Assembly: GCA_040386955.1 (NCBI GenBank)
Contig: JAZKER010000043.1
Coordinates: forward strand, 1,847 to 65,846
Source: Verrucomicrobiota bacterium
Lineage (GTDB): Bacteria > Verrucomicrobiota > Verrucomicrobiia > Verrucomicrobiales > Verrucomicrobiaceae
Direction of reading: 5' to 3'
Length of the DNA: 64,000 nt
A program made the position numbers and the translations under genes. Positions 48,230 to 58,453 of the stretch are shown here, in pieces. The stretch's first letter is position 1; each line of letters begins with the position of its first letter. The notes beneath the pieces were generated by a model. The model was not told the origin of the DNA, did not search any database, and worked only from the letters and a program-made list of their open reading frames with translations.

Positions 48230-48606
48230 AAACAGGCCGCTTTGGTCTAGAGACGCTCTATCTTCACCATCCGCTTTGGCACAATCCCGATTGACCGGTC
48301 CAGCAGCACCCCTTGTGGAGGAGAAGTCCGCACGGTTCACCGCGACCGGTATCGGCTTGGAGAGGTGGCTTTCACGACTTTCAGCCTACTAAAACTTTTA
48401 TCCGAATTGCATCCGTCTCCTCATTGGTGCTCATCGCCCGGGGAAGAATTTCACCTCCAGCATCTACTACCTCAAAAACCGCAATGTCACTGGTGTATGC
48501 CTAGCGTCCCCAGTATTCTTCGTCCCGAGTCCACACTGGAGCAGGGGGGACCAGTGAACTGCGCGGCAGCAGGCGAGGCCGACGCGGCAAAAAATGCGGC
48601 GTTAGA
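48230..48606 (-). pseudogene. Decayed N-terminal fragment of a paralogue of the 42883-44154 pyruvyl-transferase-like gene
   Basis: Nucleotide-level similarity is visible: 48445-48545 matches 43950-44050 at roughly 75-80 percent. The minus-strand reading LLQCGLGTKNTGDARHTPVTLRFLR** compares with LLQCAWATKNIGDIGHTPGTLRFLEQY. There are in-frame TAG TAG codons at 48464-48469 and several frameshifts. The leader is cut at about 48606 and the C-terminal ~290 codons are missing. Confidence 0.65.
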
Positions 48607-48786: not shown

Positions 48787-49707
48787 ATGGCCTGGAGCAC
48801 AGATGACTGGCAAGAATACAATATGTCGCTTGCTGCGCAGTTTCACCGAGGATCGTTTCAAACTATTCCTGACAATCACGGTGGTGATGGTGGATTGGAA
48901 GGATTTTCGAAAGATGATCTCGCCGTTGGCTATCAGTGCTATGTGCCAGAGGAAGATGCCGAGAGTTCATTCGCTACACGAATTCTCAGAAAGATCAATA
49001 GCGACACCCTAAAACTTAAAAAAAACGCTGTTTTTTTCAGTAAATGCCTTGATGCTATCAAATTAAAGCGATGGACACTGATCATACCGGCTGAGTATTT
49101 GAAAGATAATCAATTAACTCAACACGTCGGTGTACGAACGGGCGAAGTACGTTCTTGGGATCTGTCTTTCATCGACAAACAGTTTACCATCACAGTCGGC
49201 TCTGGTGCTGAGTTTGATGGTGTCCGAGATCGTTGTCGTGAGTTTGGTAGAAAAAGAATAAATATACTGACTGAACCTCCTACTGATACCGAGCAAAAAG
49301 AATGGGAGCTTGCTAACGAACCCAAGATGCAATTGCTTGATGACAAGTTGGGTAAATCGAAGCGTCCCCGACTAGCAATTTCAGCTATCCGGTCAGCACT
49401 TGTCCGGAATGCAGTAATTGCTCAAAACGCCTTCAATCGGATAGAAAAAGAGGATCCTGAAGGATGGGAGAGACTAGTTAAAACAAAAAGTGAGAAGAGA
49501 GATGCATTGGAATTGGAAAGTGCGTTGAATACTGCAATCCCTGCGGAATTTATTACAAAGGTAAAAGCCGAATACCAGGCCAGAGCGCTTGAGGTAATGC
49601 CCGCACTGACAGAGGCTGCAGCACGAATACTTGCGGACGAAGCTATCGTGGAGTGGTTATTTGCTTGTCCCCTTAACTTCTTTGAAAGTGAATCTGATGG
49701 AAAGTGA
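48787..49707 (+). CDS. Island gene A: putative effector (LmuA / ABC-3C effector position), N-terminal REase-like motif plus helical C-domain
   Basis: 306 aa. GGDGGLEGF...GYQCY (residues 32-52) resembles Mrr-type DGGIDG...QxK but carries Y in place of K. The C-terminal ~130 aa are predicted helical. It overlaps gene B by 11 nt. Confidence 0.55.
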   Translation: MAWSTDDWQEYNMSLAAQFHRGSFQTIPDNHGGDGGLEGFSKDDLAVGYQCYVPEEDAESSFATRILRKINSDTLKLKKNAVFFSKCLDAIKLKRWTLIIPAEYLKDNQLTQHVGVRTGEVRSWDLSFIDKQFTITVGSGAEFDGVRDRCREFGRKRINILTEPPTDTEQKEWELANEPKMQLLDDKLGKSKRPRLAISAIRSALVRNAVIAQNAFNRIEKEDPEGWERLVKTKSEKRDALELESALNTAIPAEFITKVKAEYQARALEVMPALTEAAARILADEAIVEWLFACPLNFFESESDGK

Positions 49708-50188
49708 TGCCTTAGATCTCCTTACACAATTGGGCGCAACGTTTACTTTTAGAAAACGCCCCATCCCAATTCCTTACGATATGCGAGCAGATTATCGTAT
49801 TGCAATCATACTGCTTATGTTACGCTACTGCGGATGGAAAGGACAGGCTCCTTTAGCAAAACTACATGTTCTAAATTGGGCACACAGAACAACAGACGGT
49901 CAACGTGCCTTATTGGATCGCCTTGATGGCAATTTGCACATGAGGGGCATCCAGATAAAGTTTGATCCGGCTTTTAGTCGCGCTATCGACTTGTCGCGGG
50001 GCGAAGGTTTAATAGAACGGACAGAATCTCATGCTTTAGTCCTGACTCCGTCAGGCAATGCTTGGCTGGATGAAATTGAAAGCGATGCTTCATGTCTAGT
50101 ACAGGAAAGAAATTTTTTCGAATCAGTTGGCATGCGGCTTAAAAACTCAATACTTAAATCCATTCTTAACCCTTCTTCAATATGGTGA
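49697..50188 (+). CDS. Island gene B: small middle component (LmuC/DdmB / ABC-3C MC position), probable winged-helix
   Basis: 163 aa starting at MESDALDL, inside the track ORF 49631-50188. The segment GEGLIERTESHALVLTPSGNAWL looks like a wHTH wing. Its stop overlaps the gene C start (ATGGTGA). Confidence 0.5.
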   Translation: MESDALDLLTQLGATFTFRKRPIPIPYDMRADYRIAIILLMLRYCGWKGQAPLAKLHVLNWAHRTTDGQRALLDRLDGNLHMRGIQIKFDPAFSRAIDLSRGEGLIERTESHALVLTPSGNAWLDEIESDASCLVQERNFFESVGMRLKNSILKSILNPSSIW

Positions 50189-52341
50189 AACTTCGTATTA
50201 GAGAGTTGAGGATTTTAGTTCAAACTGCCATTGGTGAATTTGGAGTCAAACTATCACTGCAGAATGGATTGACCGTCATTCGAGCTGACAATTCCTCGGG
50301 TAAATCCACGATTGTTCAAAGCATGATTTATGGACTTGGACTGGAAGGAATGTTAAGTGCTAGTCGAAGCGTACCTTTGCCGCACGCGATAACTCATATG
50401 ATTGATGCGGAGGATGGTTCACGCCATGAAGTTATATCCTCTGAAGTTCAGTTAGAATTTTCTAACCACGATGGTCACATCGTAACGACTATTAGGCGTG
50501 TAAAAGGGGCGCTTAATCACAATTTAATTACTGTTGTTCACGGTCCGGCAATCTCTGCTCCTGACCCCGTTATTCCCTATGAGCTGGAGGACAAATATGT
50601 CAGAGATCGTGGTGCAGCCACCAAGCCTGAGGGCTTTCATTATTGGTTATCAACGTTTCTCGGCTGGACGCTGCCACAGGTGACCACCTTCGATGGAAAG
50701 TCTTGCCCTCTTTACATTGAATCTATGTTTCCCCTGATTCTTATCGAGCAGAAGAAGGCCTGGACAGGAATTCAAGCGCGAATGCCAACTCAGTTTCAGA
50801 TTCGTGATGCATCAAAACGCGCAATTGAGTTCATCCTAAAATTGTCTGTGTTCGAATTGATTGCAAAGGCACAGCAACTTCGTGATGCAAAGGCGGAGAT
50901 TCAGCGGCAATGGCAACGGTGGACGTTAGAAGCATCTTCAGCCGCCAGGCAGGCTGGCGGCATTATCAATGGTTTAACTGAGATGCCAATGAAGCAATGG
51001 TCGGTCAAAGAACCTGTTACATTAATGCTTTATCGTGATAATCGATGGGTGGATATCAACCAGGCAAAACAAGCAGATCAAACAGAGATTGATAGCTTGA
51101 TATCAAAGGAAATCCCCGAAGTATCTGCGGTTTCGGATCAGCTAACCGCACAATTGAGAGAAGTTGAGGAAGAGTTGCAAACTATCCAAGTTACCTTGGT
51201 TGAAGCTATTCAGGATGTTAGTGCTAAACGTGTGCAGATGACGGGCCTAGAAGCCAGGCTAGTTGAATTGGCCGACGATCTTGCAGGTAATAAATCTGTT
51301 CGTAAACTCCGAACAATGGGGGCAAGATATATACCAAAAATTGTAACTGATCACCGTTGTCCCACTTGCCATCAAAACGTGGACGAAAGTTTGTTGCCTC
51401 AAGATAATGCAGTTAACGTAATGTCACTCGAAGACAGTATTAATTTTATTGAGGCTCAGCAAGAAATTTACAATGCTGCAAAAGGTAGTTTGATTCGAGC
51501 TATTTCTGTTATAAACGCGGAAATAGCTGCGTTGAGAGAAAAGGAGGCTGAAATACGTGCTAGGATTAGGGCCCTCAAAACTAGCTTGGTTTCCGAAGGA
51601 CATGCGCCATCACGCGCTGCTATTGAAGCCTTACAAGTTGCTCAAGCTCGCTTAGCTCGAACAATCGAAGCCGAAAATATTATAGAAGTAGATTTCTCTC
51701 AGCTTAAATCTCTTTGTTCTCAATGGTTGGCTGTAACAGAGGAGTTAAAAAAGTTACCTGATGACTATTTAACTAAGGACGATCAGCGCAAAATTAAGAC
51801 GTTGGAGATGCTCTTCCAATCGCATGCCACTGCGTTTGATGTGCGAAGCGTGGCCCCCAAAGATATTACGTTGTCGAGGGAGAGCTACAAGCCTGAATAT
51901 AAGGGTTTCGATTTGGAATTCGATCTTTCGGCTAGTGATTTGATCCGCACCATTTGGGCCTATCTTCATTCGCTGTTGGAGCTAGCTCGCGAGGAGGATA
52001 CTAATCATCCCGGTTTGCTTGTACTTGATGAACCAAGGCAGCAAGACACGAATCGAGAGAGCTTTGCGAGTTTCTTCGTGCGTGCTCAAACTTCTGCGGA
52101 TTTTGACCAACAAGTGATTGTCACGACAAGTGAGAAGGAGGAGGAACTAAAGCGCATTCTGGACGGAGTGGCTCATCGATTAATTGAATTTAAGACAGAT
52201 CACATTCTGACCCGCGTCCCCTCCCAGGGAAATGATTCACAGGATTTGCCTGCAAAAGAAGAGGTAGATACACCTCTGAATGATGCGCCTCAGGAAACTA
52301 AAACCGCTGAAGCTAGCGACGATGACGATATTCCGTTTTAA
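50182..52341 (+). CDS. Island gene C: ABC/SMC (Rad50/LmuB-like) ATPase with long coiled-coil insert, CxxC hook-like motif and SSB-like acidic C-terminal tip
   Basis: Walker A ADNSSGKST (50284-50310). About 390 aa of heptad-rich sequence with CPTC at its centre (51358-51369). Degenerate signature LSASD. Walker B LLVLDEP (about 52015-52035). Tail ends ...ASDDDDIPF. Confidence 0.8.
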   Translation: MVKLRIRELRILVQTAIGEFGVKLSLQNGLTVIRADNSSGKSTIVQSMIYGLGLEGMLSASRSVPLPHAITHMIDAEDGSRHEVISSEVQLEFSNHDGHIVTTIRRVKGALNHNLITVVHGPAISAPDPVIPYELEDKYVRDRGAATKPEGFHYWLSTFLGWTLPQVTTFDGKSCPLYIESMFPLILIEQKKAWTGIQARMPTQFQIRDASKRAIEFILKLSVFELIAKAQQLRDAKAEIQRQWQRWTLEASSAARQAGGIINGLTEMPMKQWSVKEPVTLMLYRDNRWVDINQAKQADQTEIDSLISKEIPEVSAVSDQLTAQLREVEEELQTIQVTLVEAIQDVSAKRVQMTGLEARLVELADDLAGNKSVRKLRTMGARYIPKIVTDHRCPTCHQNVDESLLPQDNAVNVMSLEDSINFIEAQQEIYNAAKGSLIRAISVINAEIAALREKEAEIRARIRALKTSLVSEGHAPSRAAIEALQVAQARLARTIEAENIIEVDFSQLKSLCSQWLAVTEELKKLPDDYLTKDDQRKIKTLEMLFQSHATAFDVRSVAPKDITLSRESYKPEYKGFDLEFDLSASDLIRTIWAYLHSLLELAREEDTNHPGLLVLDEPRQQDTNRESFASFFVRAQTSADFDQQVIVTTSEKEEELKRILDGVAHRLIEFKTDHILTRVPSQGNDSQDLPAKEEVDTPLNDAPQETKTAEASDDDDIPF

Positions 52342-52369
52342 TAGGAATGTTCTTATCTAGCATCCCGCT

Positions 52370-53755
52370 TTATAACACCCTCACCATCTCTTCCATCCGC
52401 TTCGTCGCGATGCCAATGGGCCGGTCGAGGGGCACGCCTGCGCAGGTCAGTAGTGTGGTGAGCAGATCTCCCTGATTGCCTTGGGTATCGGCCAGGAAAC
52501 GGCCGGTGTTGACGGAGCCGCCGCCTTTGCCGACGATGATGAAGGGGAGGTTTTTGCGGCTGTGGTCGTTGCCGTCTTCCAGGCCGGAGCCCCACATCAT
52601 GAGGCAGTTGTCCAGGAGGCTGCCGTCGCCTTCGCGGAGGCTGGCCATCTTTTTCACCATGTAGGCAAACTGGGTGATGTTGAAAGCGGTGATGGCGGCG
52701 ACTTTCGCGACTTGATCGGCCTTGTGGTTGTGATGCGTCTGGGAGTGATGCGAGTCGGTGAAGCCGAGTTCCGGATACGAGACACCATTGGGCGTGGAGC
52801 CGATGTAGGTGCTGACGCGGGTGGTATCCGTCTGGAAGGCGAGCACGTTGAGGTCGCACATGACCTGCATGTATTCGCTGCGTTTGTCGCCCTCGGGAAT
52901 GCGGATCTCGATGGGCGGTGAATCCGTGGCGCTGCGCTTGCTGGAGGCGACCCCGGCTTTCTCCAGGGCGGATTCTTTCTGGCGCATTTCGATGGCGGCG
53001 ATGCGGCGCTCCACAGAGCGCACGCTGTCCAGGTATTCGTCCAGCTTGTGCTGGTCGTTCTGCGGCAGCTTCTTGCGCAGGTCCCGCGCACCGCCGATCA
53101 CCAGGTCCAGCATCTGCCGCTCCAGCGGATCGGCCTTGCGGCTGCTGCCGGAGGAGTCCGACTTGCCGAACAAACGATTCAGTACGTTGCGCGGATTGAT
53201 CTCTGCCGGGACGGCCTGCGTGGGCGAGCGGTAGCTGCAGTGCGAGTAGTAACCTTCGTTCAGGCCTTCCTGGTTCTCCTTGTGCGTCTGCGGCATGGTG
53301 GCCAGCTCCAGCGAGGGCAGGGAAGTCATCGCACCCACGTAGTTCGCGGCGATCTGGTCCGCCGAGATGGCGATGTGGATCTGGTTGCGCTTGCTCGGGT
53401 CTGGCAGGCAGGCGGTGAGCCAGGTGGAAAGCTCCAGCGCATGCGGAGCGCCATTGAAGGGGGCGATGGGCACCCCGGAGATGCCCTTCATCAGCAGGCA
53501 CTGATCCAGAATGGGCCGCAGGGACTCCAGCGCAGGGGGCGGGGAGCTGAGGTAGCTCTCCGGCGTGGCAGGCCAGAACTGATCTGGAATCACCCCATGC
53601 GGCATGTACATGAACCCGAGGCGCACGGGTGGCTTCACCGCCGCCCGCCCTTTGACGGAGTCTGCCCAGCCCATCGTTTCCAAAAGCGGCAGGCCCAGGC
53701 TGGCTCCAATGCCTTTCAAATACGTGCGGCGATCAATGAGGTTCTTGCGGGTCAT
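52370..53755 (-). CDS. DUF1501-family (sulfatase-like) protein with Tat-type leader
   Basis: [26 protein letters not shown] leader. The size and the pairing with an upstream DUF1592-type gene are typical of PVC genomes. Confidence 0.85.
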
Positions 53756-57226: not shown

Positions 57227-58453
57227 TCAGGCGGAGCCTTCGGGGCGTTGTTTTTCGGCTTCCATGGCGGCTTTTTCGGCGGCGATGGCGGCCAGGGCTG
57301 CGGCGCGGCGGGCGCGTTCCTTGGCCTCCTGCTCGGCGCGGGCCTTGGTGGCGGCGGCTTCGCGGCGGGCTTTGGCTTCTTCTTCGACCTGGCGGGCGGC
57401 TTCTTTCTCGGAGTCCTGCTTGGCCTTCAGAGCAGCGGCAGCGGCTTTCACGGCTTCGAGTTCACGGCGTGCCAGCTCGCGGGTGGCTTCCTTGGCGGCC
57501 TCATGTTCGGCATCGGCTTTGGCCTTGGCTTCGGCGGCGGCTTGGCGGGCGGCGATCTTCTCGGCCTGGAGACGGGCATTCTCGGCTGCTTTCTCTGCGG
57601 CTGCTTGGGCGCGGGCCAGAGTGGCTGCTTCCTTTTCAGCTTGGAGACGAGCTTTCTCTGCGGCCTTTTCGGCAACGGCCTGTTCTTTGGCGATGCGGGC
57701 GGCTTCTTTTTCCTCGGCGATGCGTGCTTTCTCTGCGGTTTTTTCTGCGTCGGCCTGTTCTTTGGCGATACGGGCAGCTTCTTTTGCTTCGGTCAAACGG
57801 GCTTTTTCAGCGGCCTTTTCTGCTGCGGCCTGTTCGCGAGCGGCGATGGCGGCTTCTTTTTCGGCTTGGAGGCGGGCTCTCTCGGCAGCCTGTTCGGCGG
57901 CGGCCTGTTCTTTGGCAAGCCGGGCGGCTTCTTTCTCTTCGGCAATGCGGGCTTTCTCGGCGGCCTTGGCTGCAACCGCTTGCTCGCGAGCGAGGATGGC
58001 CGCCTCTTTTTCAGCTTGGAGACGAGCCTTCTCCGCGGCCTTTTCAGCTGCGGCCTGTTCACGGGCAGCGATGGCGGCTTCTTTCTCGGCTTGGAGACGG
58101 GCTTTTTCAGCAGCCTGTTCGGCGGCGGCTTGTTCCTTGGCCACTCGGGCAGCTTCTTTCTCTTCGGCAATGCGAGCTTTCTCGGCGGCCTTGGCGGCTT
58201 CTTTTTCGGCGATGGCTTGTTCGCGGGCGAGGATGATGGCTTCTTTGGCTGCGATGTCGGCGGCGAATTTGGCTTCCTGGGCTTCGGCCAGCTTCGTGGT
58301 GAACTCACGCAACTGGCGGGCGAGGTTCTGGGCGGTTTCGGTCAGGACGAGGGCGGCGTCGGAGGGCACGCGGGGCAGGAGTTCCAGCGACTCGAGCCGG
58401 GCGGCGGTGTCGTTGAGAAGGGCGGTGAACTTGGGGTCGAGTCTCGTGGTCAT
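57227..58453 (-). CDS. Ala/Glu/Lys-rich coiled-coil repeat protein
   Basis: Unique N-terminal ~60 aa, no signal peptide, then about nine 25-aa units of the type AAEKARLQAEKEAAIAAREQAAAEK. Confidence 0.6.
   Translation of the reverse strand: MTTRLDPKFTALLNDTAARLESLELLPRVPSDAALVLTETAQNLARQLREFTTKLAEAQEAKFAADIAAKEAIILAREQAIAEKEAAKAAEKARIAEEKEAARVAKEQAAAEQAAEKARLQAEKEAAIAAREQAAAEKAAEKARLQAEKEAAILAREQAVAAKAAEKARIAEEKEAARLAKEQAAAEQAAERARLQAEKEAAIAAREQAAAEKAAEKARLTEAKEAARIAKEQADAEKTAEKARIAEEKEAARIAKEQAVAEKAAEKARLQAEKEAATLARAQAAAEKAAENARLQAEKIAARQAAAEAKAKADAEHEAAKEATRELARRELEAVKAAAAALKAKQDSEKEAARQVEEEAKARREAAATKARAEQEAKERARRAAALAAIAAEKAAMEAEKQRPEGSA
57515..58265. repeat. 75-bp in-frame tandem repeat array (about 9-10 copies)
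   Basis: Plus-strand unit cctgttctttggcgatgcgggcggcttctttttcctcggcgatgcgtgctttctctgcggttttttctgcgtcgg recurs every 75 nt with variation. Confidence 0.8.

Follow-up and report, generated by a model that had tools for sequence, protein, structure and literature searches.

An SSB-type C-terminal peptide conserved in a clade of Lamassu LmuB ATPases from a verrucomicrobial defense cassette

Here, we present an analysis of a three-gene defense cassette and of the C-terminus of one of its products in a 64-kb stretch of DNA from a Verrucomicrobiota bacterium (positions 1,847 to 65,846 of contig JAZKER010000043.1, GenBank assembly GCA_040386955.1; referred to as the window, in whose coordinates all positions are given). 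The three genes are co-directional and overlapping, match PADLOC profiles for LmuA, LmuC, and LmuB, and constitute a type II ("short," LmuC-containing) Lamassu cassette in the order LmuA-LmuC-LmuB (Table 1). The last gene encodes LmuB, a Rad50/SbcC-like sensor ATPase, and its reading frame continues beyond the ATPase body into an acidic linker that ends in D-D-D-D-I-P-F. Judged by its sequence, this tip fits the consensus of the docking peptide (DDDIPF) at the C-terminus of the bacterial single-stranded DNA (ssDNA)-binding protein SSB, to which we refer as SSB-Ct. More importantly, all members of the clade to which this LmuB belongs carry such a tail, and the pattern of conservation indicates that the tail is not a product of chance and that its tip is under purifying selection.

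Lamassu systems are present in ~15% of prokaryotic genomes and have been proposed to derive from SbcCD (PMC12663957). In the solved systems, LmuB2-LmuC sequesters an LmuA monomer, and freed LmuA tetramerizes into an active nuclease; LmuA is released by double-stranded DNA (dsDNA) ends in vitro and by a transient lambda replication-origin intermediate in vivo (PMC12663957; bioRxiv 10.1101/2025.03.14.643221). A preprint of 2026 cites reports of a Lamassu system that is activated by ssDNA hairpins at the replication origins of plasmids or phages (bioRxiv 10.64898/2026.07.10.737580). By homology with the studied systems (PMC12663957; bioRxiv 10.1101/2025.03.14.643221), we infer that the cassette described here has anti-phage/anti-plasmid activity and operates by the sequestration and release of LmuA. 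Many genome-maintenance proteins dock onto the hexapeptide DDDIPF, which is conserved at the C-terminus of SSB (PMC5872125, PMC10164576), and SbcC of Bacillus subtilis gets to replication forks via SSB's C-terminal domain (PMC3000357). The tail of LmuB bears on the question of how a Lamassu sensor finds rare DNA triggers in a cell filled with DNA.

Table 1. Features of the Lamassu cassette and its borders in window coordinates
Feature	Coordinates	Strand	Basis or remark
LmuA effector subunit, 306 aa	48787..49707	+	PADLOC LmuA PDLC03852, 4e-10
LmuC small middle subunit, 163 aa from ATG 49697	49697..50188	+	PADLOC LmuC PDLC03871, 1e-18
LmuB open reading frame, 719 aa	50182..52341	+	PADLOC LmuB PDLC03863, 2e-106
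LmuB body, residues 1-678: ABC ATPase head, antiparallel coiled coil, single CxxC zinc hook	50182..52215	+	
LmuB acidic linker, predicted disordered, residues 679-712, VPSQGNDSQDLPAKEEVDTPLNDAPQETKTAEAS	52216..52317	+	AlphaFold2 pLDDT, composition
LmuB SSB-Ct-type tip D-D-D-D-I-P-F, free C-terminus, residues 713-719	52318..52338	+	sequence, clade conservation
Tandem stop codons TAA TAG after LmuB	52339..52344	+	
Left copy of the imperfect direct repeat at the island border	48236..48370	.	repeat search and pairwise alignment
Right copy of the island-bordering direct repeat	52362..52500	.	inside the 3' end of the DUF1552 gene
DUF1552 gene, convergent with LmuB	52370..53755	minus	

The LmuB protein and its C-terminal tail

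LmuB ends in ...TKTAEASDDDDIPF, followed by a TAA stop codon and a second in-frame stop codon, TAG. A first-pass annotation, made from the letters of the DNA alone, had read the last seven codons (52318-52338) as D-D-D-D-I-P-F before a stop, and this reading is exact (GAC GAT GAC GAT ATT CCG TTT). The low-complexity stretch that it described in front of the tip is likewise real. Based on homology, the tail begins after a conserved HILTR, at residue 679 (nucleotide [nt] 52216); the annotation had placed the start two codons upstream, at 52210, and one codon ahead of the peptide that it cited, which is immaterial. The 41-aa tail has 12 acidic, 2 basic, 5 Pro, and 11 Ser/Thr/Gln/Asn residues, and the 34 aa that precede the tip form an acidic, Pro/Ser/Thr/Gln-rich linker. 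Consistent with the annotation's view that this linker is disordered, residues 681-718 have a predicted local distance difference test (pLDDT) score of ~35 and no secondary structure in an AlphaFold2 model, and the whole tail lies outside the LmuB family profile, whose match stops at residue 672. A random protein would be expected to end in [DE]3-[IL]-P-F with a probability on the order of 1e-7 to 1e-6, as estimated by arithmetic from typical amino-acid frequencies. In six frames of the 64-kb window, no other open reading frame (ORF) ends in [DE]2+[ILVMF]PF-stop; LmuB is the sole one. The only match of the tail among PDB sequences is a meaningless acidic similarity to calsequestrin.

Other identities for the tail were dismissed. 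Judged from general knowledge of such motifs, it lacks the Gln/Leu pattern of a beta-clamp-binding motif (QL[SD]LF-like consensus) and does not represent an ssrA-like degron. An assembly or frameshift artefact was discarded, given that eight independent assemblies carry the tail in frame.

The body of the protein is that of a Lamassu LmuB, as the first-pass annotation had proposed in calling it a Lamassu-type SMC/Rad50-like ATPase. The PADLOC profile PDLC03863 aligns from position 3 to 597 of its 610 positions with residues 4-672 (2e-106), many weaker LmuB models also match, and the only Pfam matches are AAA_23 and SMC_N, both N-terminal, and AAA_15. In an alignment of 35 sequences, the Walker A residues G39-K40-S41, Q189, the zinc-hook cysteines C392/C395, the signature S582-A-S-D585, and the Walker B residues D615-E616 are invariant (positions in the numbering of the sequence P0001; add 1 for the ORF from ATG 50182). 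An AlphaFold2 model built on 35 aligned sequences (mean pLDDT 83 and predicted template modeling score 0.70 for the whole protein) contains long helices at residues 222-256, 313-377, 415-469, and 477-523. The best Foldseek matches of this model are the solved LmuB chains 9uxh_F, 9hqx_f, 9hqu_A, and 9hqx_B (E 5e-14 to 5e-13, probability 1.0), which outrank Rad50, SMC, MukB, and JetC. LmuB has no Pfam match to SSB, and the predicted fold is a Rad50-like head with a coiled coil and no oligonucleotide/oligosaccharide-binding (OB) fold; LmuB is not an SSB, and its likeness to SSB is confined to the tail.

Conservation, distribution, and history of the tail

The first-pass annotation had singled out in advance the conservation of the tail in close homologues as the observation on which its proposal would turn; this check, like all others that sequence analysis allows, bore its interpretation out. 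A search of 5.8 billion protein clusters yielded 44 relatives. The six closest (56-64% identity) and one cluster mate, P0214, all have a tail of 38-45 aa. Counting the window LmuB, the tailed clade, which is of verrucomicrobial type, comprises eight sequences, mostly metagenomic, and all eight end in (D/E)n-I-P-F, once an Asn in the acidic run is allowed for: DDDDIPF, DEDDIPF (twice), EEDDIPF, DDNDIPF, and EDDEIPF (three times). The resulting consensus is [DE][DE][DEN][DE]-I-P-F-stop, with I-P-F invariant and a single Asn among the acidic positions. The members are 55-75% identical in the body. Averaged over pairs, identity is 61% in the body, ~26% in the linker (31-38 aa; the value comes from an optimistic global alignment), 74% in the last seven residues, and 100% in IPF; the tip is better conserved than the average of the ATPase body. 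The net charge of the whole tail ranges from -7 to -11 across the clade. Among six loci, the codons of the tip differ synonymously (GAC/GAT, GAA/GAG, ATT/ATC, CCG/CCT, and TTT/TTC) and all three stop codons are in use after it, arguing that the peptide rather than the nucleotide sequence is conserved. What speaks decisively against chance as the source of the tail is this pattern: the tip is retained in all eight members, with synonymous changes in its codons and next to a hypervariable linker.

In a neighbor-joining tree of the LmuB body (674 columns, 200 bootstraps), the tailed clade is monophyletic (200/200) and its sister (197/200) is an untailed clade, among whose members is a Luteolibacter metagenome-assembled genome (MAG). 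The sister clade has the same LmuA-LmuC-LmuB operon, and its LmuB proteins stop 0-6 residues past the head. Because this clade lacks the tail, the tail is an accessory module and not a core requirement. In the untailed Luteolibacter locus, the DNA downstream of the LmuB stop codon contains no decayed tail, which fits a gain in the tailed clade and not a recent loss. The simplest history that the tree suggests is one gain, after which the tail was kept in every known descendant.

Across the LmuB family, the tail is rare. An exhaustive hidden Markov model search of 1.84 billion representatives returned 2527 family members, and the C-termini of the best 150 were inspected. Nearly all of these 150 end at the end of the profile; 148 of them lack the tail, which occurs only in the cluster of the window LmuB itself, and the sole other acidic-IPF end is that of P0162 (L014:6001-8055). 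P0162 is a distant singleton LmuB (33% identity) that ends in ...VRQQELQNDIPF, i.e., ...NDIPF, after a very short spacer of ~5-9 aa. It is encoded in the same LmuA-LmuC-LmuB operon type, with toxin-antitoxin genes and an ArdC-like (ArdcN-domain) gene as neighbors. Because an end in D-I-P-F would be expected by chance only ~1e-3 times among the ~200 other sequences inspected (by arithmetic), P0162, although a singleton without close relatives, probably acquired its minimal tip independently, in a second gain. Elsewhere in the databases we encountered only untailed proteins: phage records gave no match by tblastn; plasmids gave 44 relatives (33-37% identity), all of which aligned only to about residue 680 and hence are untailed; and scans of genomes, metagenomes, and viral contigs returned no further tailed member, only untailed relatives (a Luteolibacter MAG, Polyangium, and one fragment) or nothing.

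Other C-terminal extensions occur nearby in the family. In the clade of P0015 (L006:6001-8418), P0017, and P0045, which are neighboring LmuBs, the body is followed by an acidic linker (…ADEDDDEGE…) and a domain of ~100 aa; a Pfam scan of this add-on gave no match. The C-terminus of LmuB seems to be a permissive site, or hotspot, for accessory modules. As a single observation, P0088, an LmuB relative of P0162, ends in ...KLSPDDGF, which is short, acidic, and Phe-terminated and recalls the tails of phage SSB-type proteins.

Operon, effector, and genomic setting

LmuA and LmuC overlap by 11 nt and LmuC and LmuB by 7 nt, suggesting translational coupling. The order, sizes, and overlaps of the three genes recur in nine related loci. 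As delimited mechanically, the LmuC ORF opens at TTG 49631 and would encode 185 aa; in homologues with the same overlaps, the protein has 163-164 aa. Because of this length, the true start of LmuC is most likely ATG 49697.

LmuA has an N-terminal domain with an alpha-beta-beta-beta-alpha-beta arrangement followed by a helical C-terminal domain (AlphaFold2 pLDDT 80), and D34, E38, Q50, and K69 are invariant in the alignment. No significant match was found in Pfam, NCBIfam, or PDB sequences. The top Foldseek matches are the Cap4 nucleases of solved LmuA proteins and a Shedu nuclease; these matches are not significant (E 0.04-0.09 for the LmuA nucleases). The N-terminal domain is probably a PD-(D/E)xK-like nuclease, and LmuA may be an undescribed nuclease-type Lamassu effector. 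Residues 202-290 show a sub-threshold similarity to Pfam CTD7 of ABC-3C systems (E 0.19, 12.4 bits; cut-off 27.6); we take ABC-3C (ABC three-component) to be a name that covers Lamassu-like systems.

The cassette lies in a low-GC island (GC 0.44 versus ~0.60 in the flanks), and the GC content falls from ~0.60 to ~0.44 directly to the right of the left repeat copy. An imperfect direct repeat of ~130 nt flanks the island, and its copies are ~4.13 kb apart (repeat families D1, 54 nt with 72% identity, and D10). The DUF1552 gene ends 28 nt beyond the tandem stop codons of LmuB; the right copy lies in its 3' end, of which the left copy seems to be a displaced remnant. No integrase is present in the cassette. 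The genome around the island is Prosthecobacter-like: the proteins encoded in the flanks group at ≥90% identity with those of Prosthecobacter species (Verrucomicrobiota). The orthologs of the flanking genes are separated by 4 accession numbers in Prosthecobacter dejongeii and by 14 in Prosthecobacter algae, a spacing that suggests that the insertion site is a variable integration hotspot. Elsewhere in the window, at 57227-58453 on the minus strand, an Ala/Glu/Lys-rich ORF of 408 aa consists of tandem repeats (…AEKARLQAEKEAAIAAREQAAAEKA…); because of the composition of these repeats, both strands hold long open ORFs in this region.

Proposed roles of the tail and comparison with known systems

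In the reading that we prefer, with about as much confidence as doubt, the tail would imitate SSB-Ct in trans and dock the sensor onto SSB-Ct-binding proteins of the host or of a phage. According to this model, the LmuB2-LmuC-LmuA complex would act as in the solved Lamassu systems, with LmuA held as a monomer until DNA ends or replication-origin intermediates free it to oligomerize into the active effector. Each complex would present two such SSB-Ct mimics to partners in trans; the terminal Phe, its carboxylate, and the acidic run would enter the hydrophobic pocket and basic rim that interactors of SSB use to bind it. Candidate partners are the clamp loader chi subunit, PriA, RecQ, RecJ, ExoI, RecG, as well as phage proteins exploiting the same peptide. 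Such tethering would keep the sensor at replisomes, stalled forks, and resected ends, the sites at which the triggers of Lamassu originate, and would raise its local concentration and sensitivity. We favor a partner in trans over a docking site in cis because of two results, both weak: the tip is not docked on the LmuB head in the AlphaFold2 model, in which the tail is of low confidence, and no co-varying pocket was found. In comparisons of tailed and untailed clades, for which the samples are small, only seven substitutions in LmuB are fixed, none of which creates basic or pocket-like residues, and no clade-specific substitution in LmuA or LmuC is suggestive of a cis pocket.

Several considerations weigh against recruitment in trans. 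Everything that goes beyond a conserved SSB-Ct-like peptide is what we infer. A tail that occupies the SSB-Ct pocket of a partner would compete with SSB, and because of this competition, recruitment would be possible only via partners that are held on DNA by other contacts. The tailed clade is tiny (eight, mostly metagenomic sequences), and its sister clade functions without the tail. An ssb gene with which to compare the tip of the host SSB was found neither in the window nor in any fetched related locus; because DDD[IL]PF is conserved almost universally in bacterial SSBs, a matching tip would be expected. Finally, the SSB linker of Escherichia coli is Gly/Gln/Pro-rich, whereas the linker of LmuB is so strongly acidic, with a net charge of the whole tail of -7 to -11, that it would also suit an electrostatic, DNA-mimicking autoinhibitor.

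Such autoinhibition in cis is an unlikely explanation in our estimate. In this scenario, the polyanionic tail would fold as a DNA mimic onto the DNA-binding surface of LmuB, or as a pseudo-ligand into an SSB-Ct pocket inherited from an SbcC-like ancestor, and prevent the sensor from engaging host DNA until it is displaced by DNA ends or by ssDNA coated with SSB. SSB and T7 gp2.5 provide precedents, in that their acidic, Phe-terminated tails fold onto their own DNA-binding clefts, and the charge of the LmuB tail and its connection to the ATPase head are as this scenario would have it. A pocket in LmuB is conceivable because SbcC of B. subtilis needs the SSB C-terminus for its access to forks (PMC3000357) and Lamassu has been proposed to be SbcCD-derived (PMC12663957). 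However, the AlphaFold2 model shows no docked conformation (tip pLDDT ~35) and the seven fixed differences in LmuB include no basic or pocket-like gain, both of which are weak tests, and an invariant I-P-F-COOH would be needless for pure electrostatic shielding. Invariance of the hub motif, and the selection on it, would also be expected if the tail were a bait, which we regard as rather unlikely. As a decoy, the tail would imitate the hub peptide of the host SSB so that phage proteins that hijack SSB-Ct bind Lamassu instead; annealing proteins of the RecT/Red-beta type and phage replication or anti-repair factors would bring intermediates to the sensor or trigger it directly. Phage recombinases indeed depend on the last seven residues of host SSB (PMC13490951, the ETfinder paper), triggering of DRT10 is linked to a phage SSB-like protein with FDDDIPF together with host SbcB (bioRxiv 10.64898/2026.04.29.721553), and phage SSB is implicated in the triggering of AbpAB (PMC10732053). 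It is doubtful that hijacking of the hub is coupled to LmuA release in this manner; if it were, a seven-residue peptide would amount to a bacterial guard/decoy strategy. An allosteric trigger would be poorly transmitted through a flexible linker of >30 aa, these hosts have no known phage partner, the sensor can do without a tail, as seen from the untailed sister clade, and the data would be the same under plain recruitment.

Two further explanations appear less probable still. The tip might make LmuB a client of SSB itself by binding the OB fold of DNA-free SSB, such that Lamassu is stored with SSB, e.g., in condensates, and delivered once ssDNA appears. The tail of LmuB has the same layout of linker plus tip as SSB, for which a preprint describes a phase separation that relies on the linker and on contact between the C-terminal peptide and the OB fold, with condensates dissolved by ssDNA (bioRxiv 10.1101/797431). 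Nevertheless, we consider this storage model improbable, given that the acidic linker is unlike the linkers of SSBs. The interaction between tip and OB fold is, moreover, weak in E. coli. Alternatively, the tail could be a neutral appendage that arose by coincidence or is the relic of a recombination with the 3' end of an ssb gene and has no function now. The small size of the clade and the identical operon in the untailed sister clade would be compatible with such an accident. However, all eight members keep IPF and the acidic run over ~40-45% divergence of the body, with the linker scrambled and the codons synonymously changed, a second, distant LmuB (P0162) ends in NDIPF, and the expectation by chance is on the order of 1e-7 to 1e-6 per protein; we therefore give a functionless tail hardly any credence.

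If our preferred reading, recruitment in trans, or the decoy reading is correct, the SSB interactome (the enzymes of the replisome, of restart, and of resection) would be the address of the sensor, or the sensor would be a bait for phage exploiters of this hub. It would be the first immune sensor with an SSB-Ct mimic, based on the literature searched, and the SSB-Ct peptide would be a transferable address tag outside SSB proteins. SSB-Ct tagging may be a portable means of wiring immune sensors into the replication and repair hub, as is hinted at by the probable second gain in P0162. While the Lamassu system is known, this accessory module of LmuB is previously undescribed: the first-pass annotation was not aware of a description for Lamassu-type ATPases and our literature searches agree, as they brought up no account of an SSB-type tip on LmuB or another defense ATPase, the nearest reports being of phage SSB-like proteins that trigger other systems, e.g., DRT10, and neither SSB nor a C-terminal tail is ever mentioned in three Lamassu structure papers.

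The closest known systems are the type II, or "short," Lamassu systems (Vibrio cholerae DdmABC and Salmonella enterica LmuACB; PDB 9hqu, 9hqx, and 9uxh). The cassette in the window shares with them the three-gene order, the small LmuC, the location in an island, an LmuB in which a Rad50-like head is combined with a short coiled coil and a CxxC zinc hook, and an LmuA in which a helical C-terminal domain follows the N-terminal effector domain. However, the window LmuB is only 11-15% identical to the solved LmuBs, the LmuA effector domain matches no Pfam family, and, most importantly, neither the solved systems nor the plasmid-borne relatives have the 41-aa extension of linker and SSB-Ct-type tip. 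Compared with the tail of bacterial SSB, the LmuB tail has the same disordered linker, acidic run, and [I/L]-P-F at the C-terminus, and in both the tip is conserved and the linker hypervariable (PMC5872125, bioRxiv 10.1101/797431). The last six residues of LmuB are identical to the E. coli SSB tip, DDDIPF. In contrast to the SSB tetramer with its four tails, an LmuB dimer presumably has two; its linker is acidic and Pro/Ser/Thr-rich rather than Gly/Gln/Pro-rich, and LmuB has no counterpart of the Phe that E. coli SSB carries at position -7 (FDDDIPF).

Like SbcCD and Rad50-Mre11, LmuB is an SMC-like ATPase with a CxxC zinc hook, and LmuB, like SbcC, would tie a Rad50-like machine to the SSB hub; however, SbcC reads the SSB peptide as a client, while LmuB carries the peptide, such that the polarity would be inverted. 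The eukaryotic sensors of double-strand breaks Nbs1, Ku80, and ATRIP, as well as T7 gp2.5, whose acidic tail ends in Phe, carry at the C-terminus a short, flexibly tethered acidic peptide that recruits a partner enzyme or folds back on the DNA-binding site of the sensor itself. These proteins have no sequence homology to the LmuB tail and have different partners, and the analogy is functional only. As in DRT10/UG17 and AbpAB, immune activation would be linked to an SSB or SSB-like protein, and DRT10 also involves host SbcB/ExoI, a partner of the SSB C-terminal tip. In those systems, the SSB or SSB-like protein is the trigger supplied by the phage; in the LmuB described here, an SSB-Ct-type peptide is built into the sensor.

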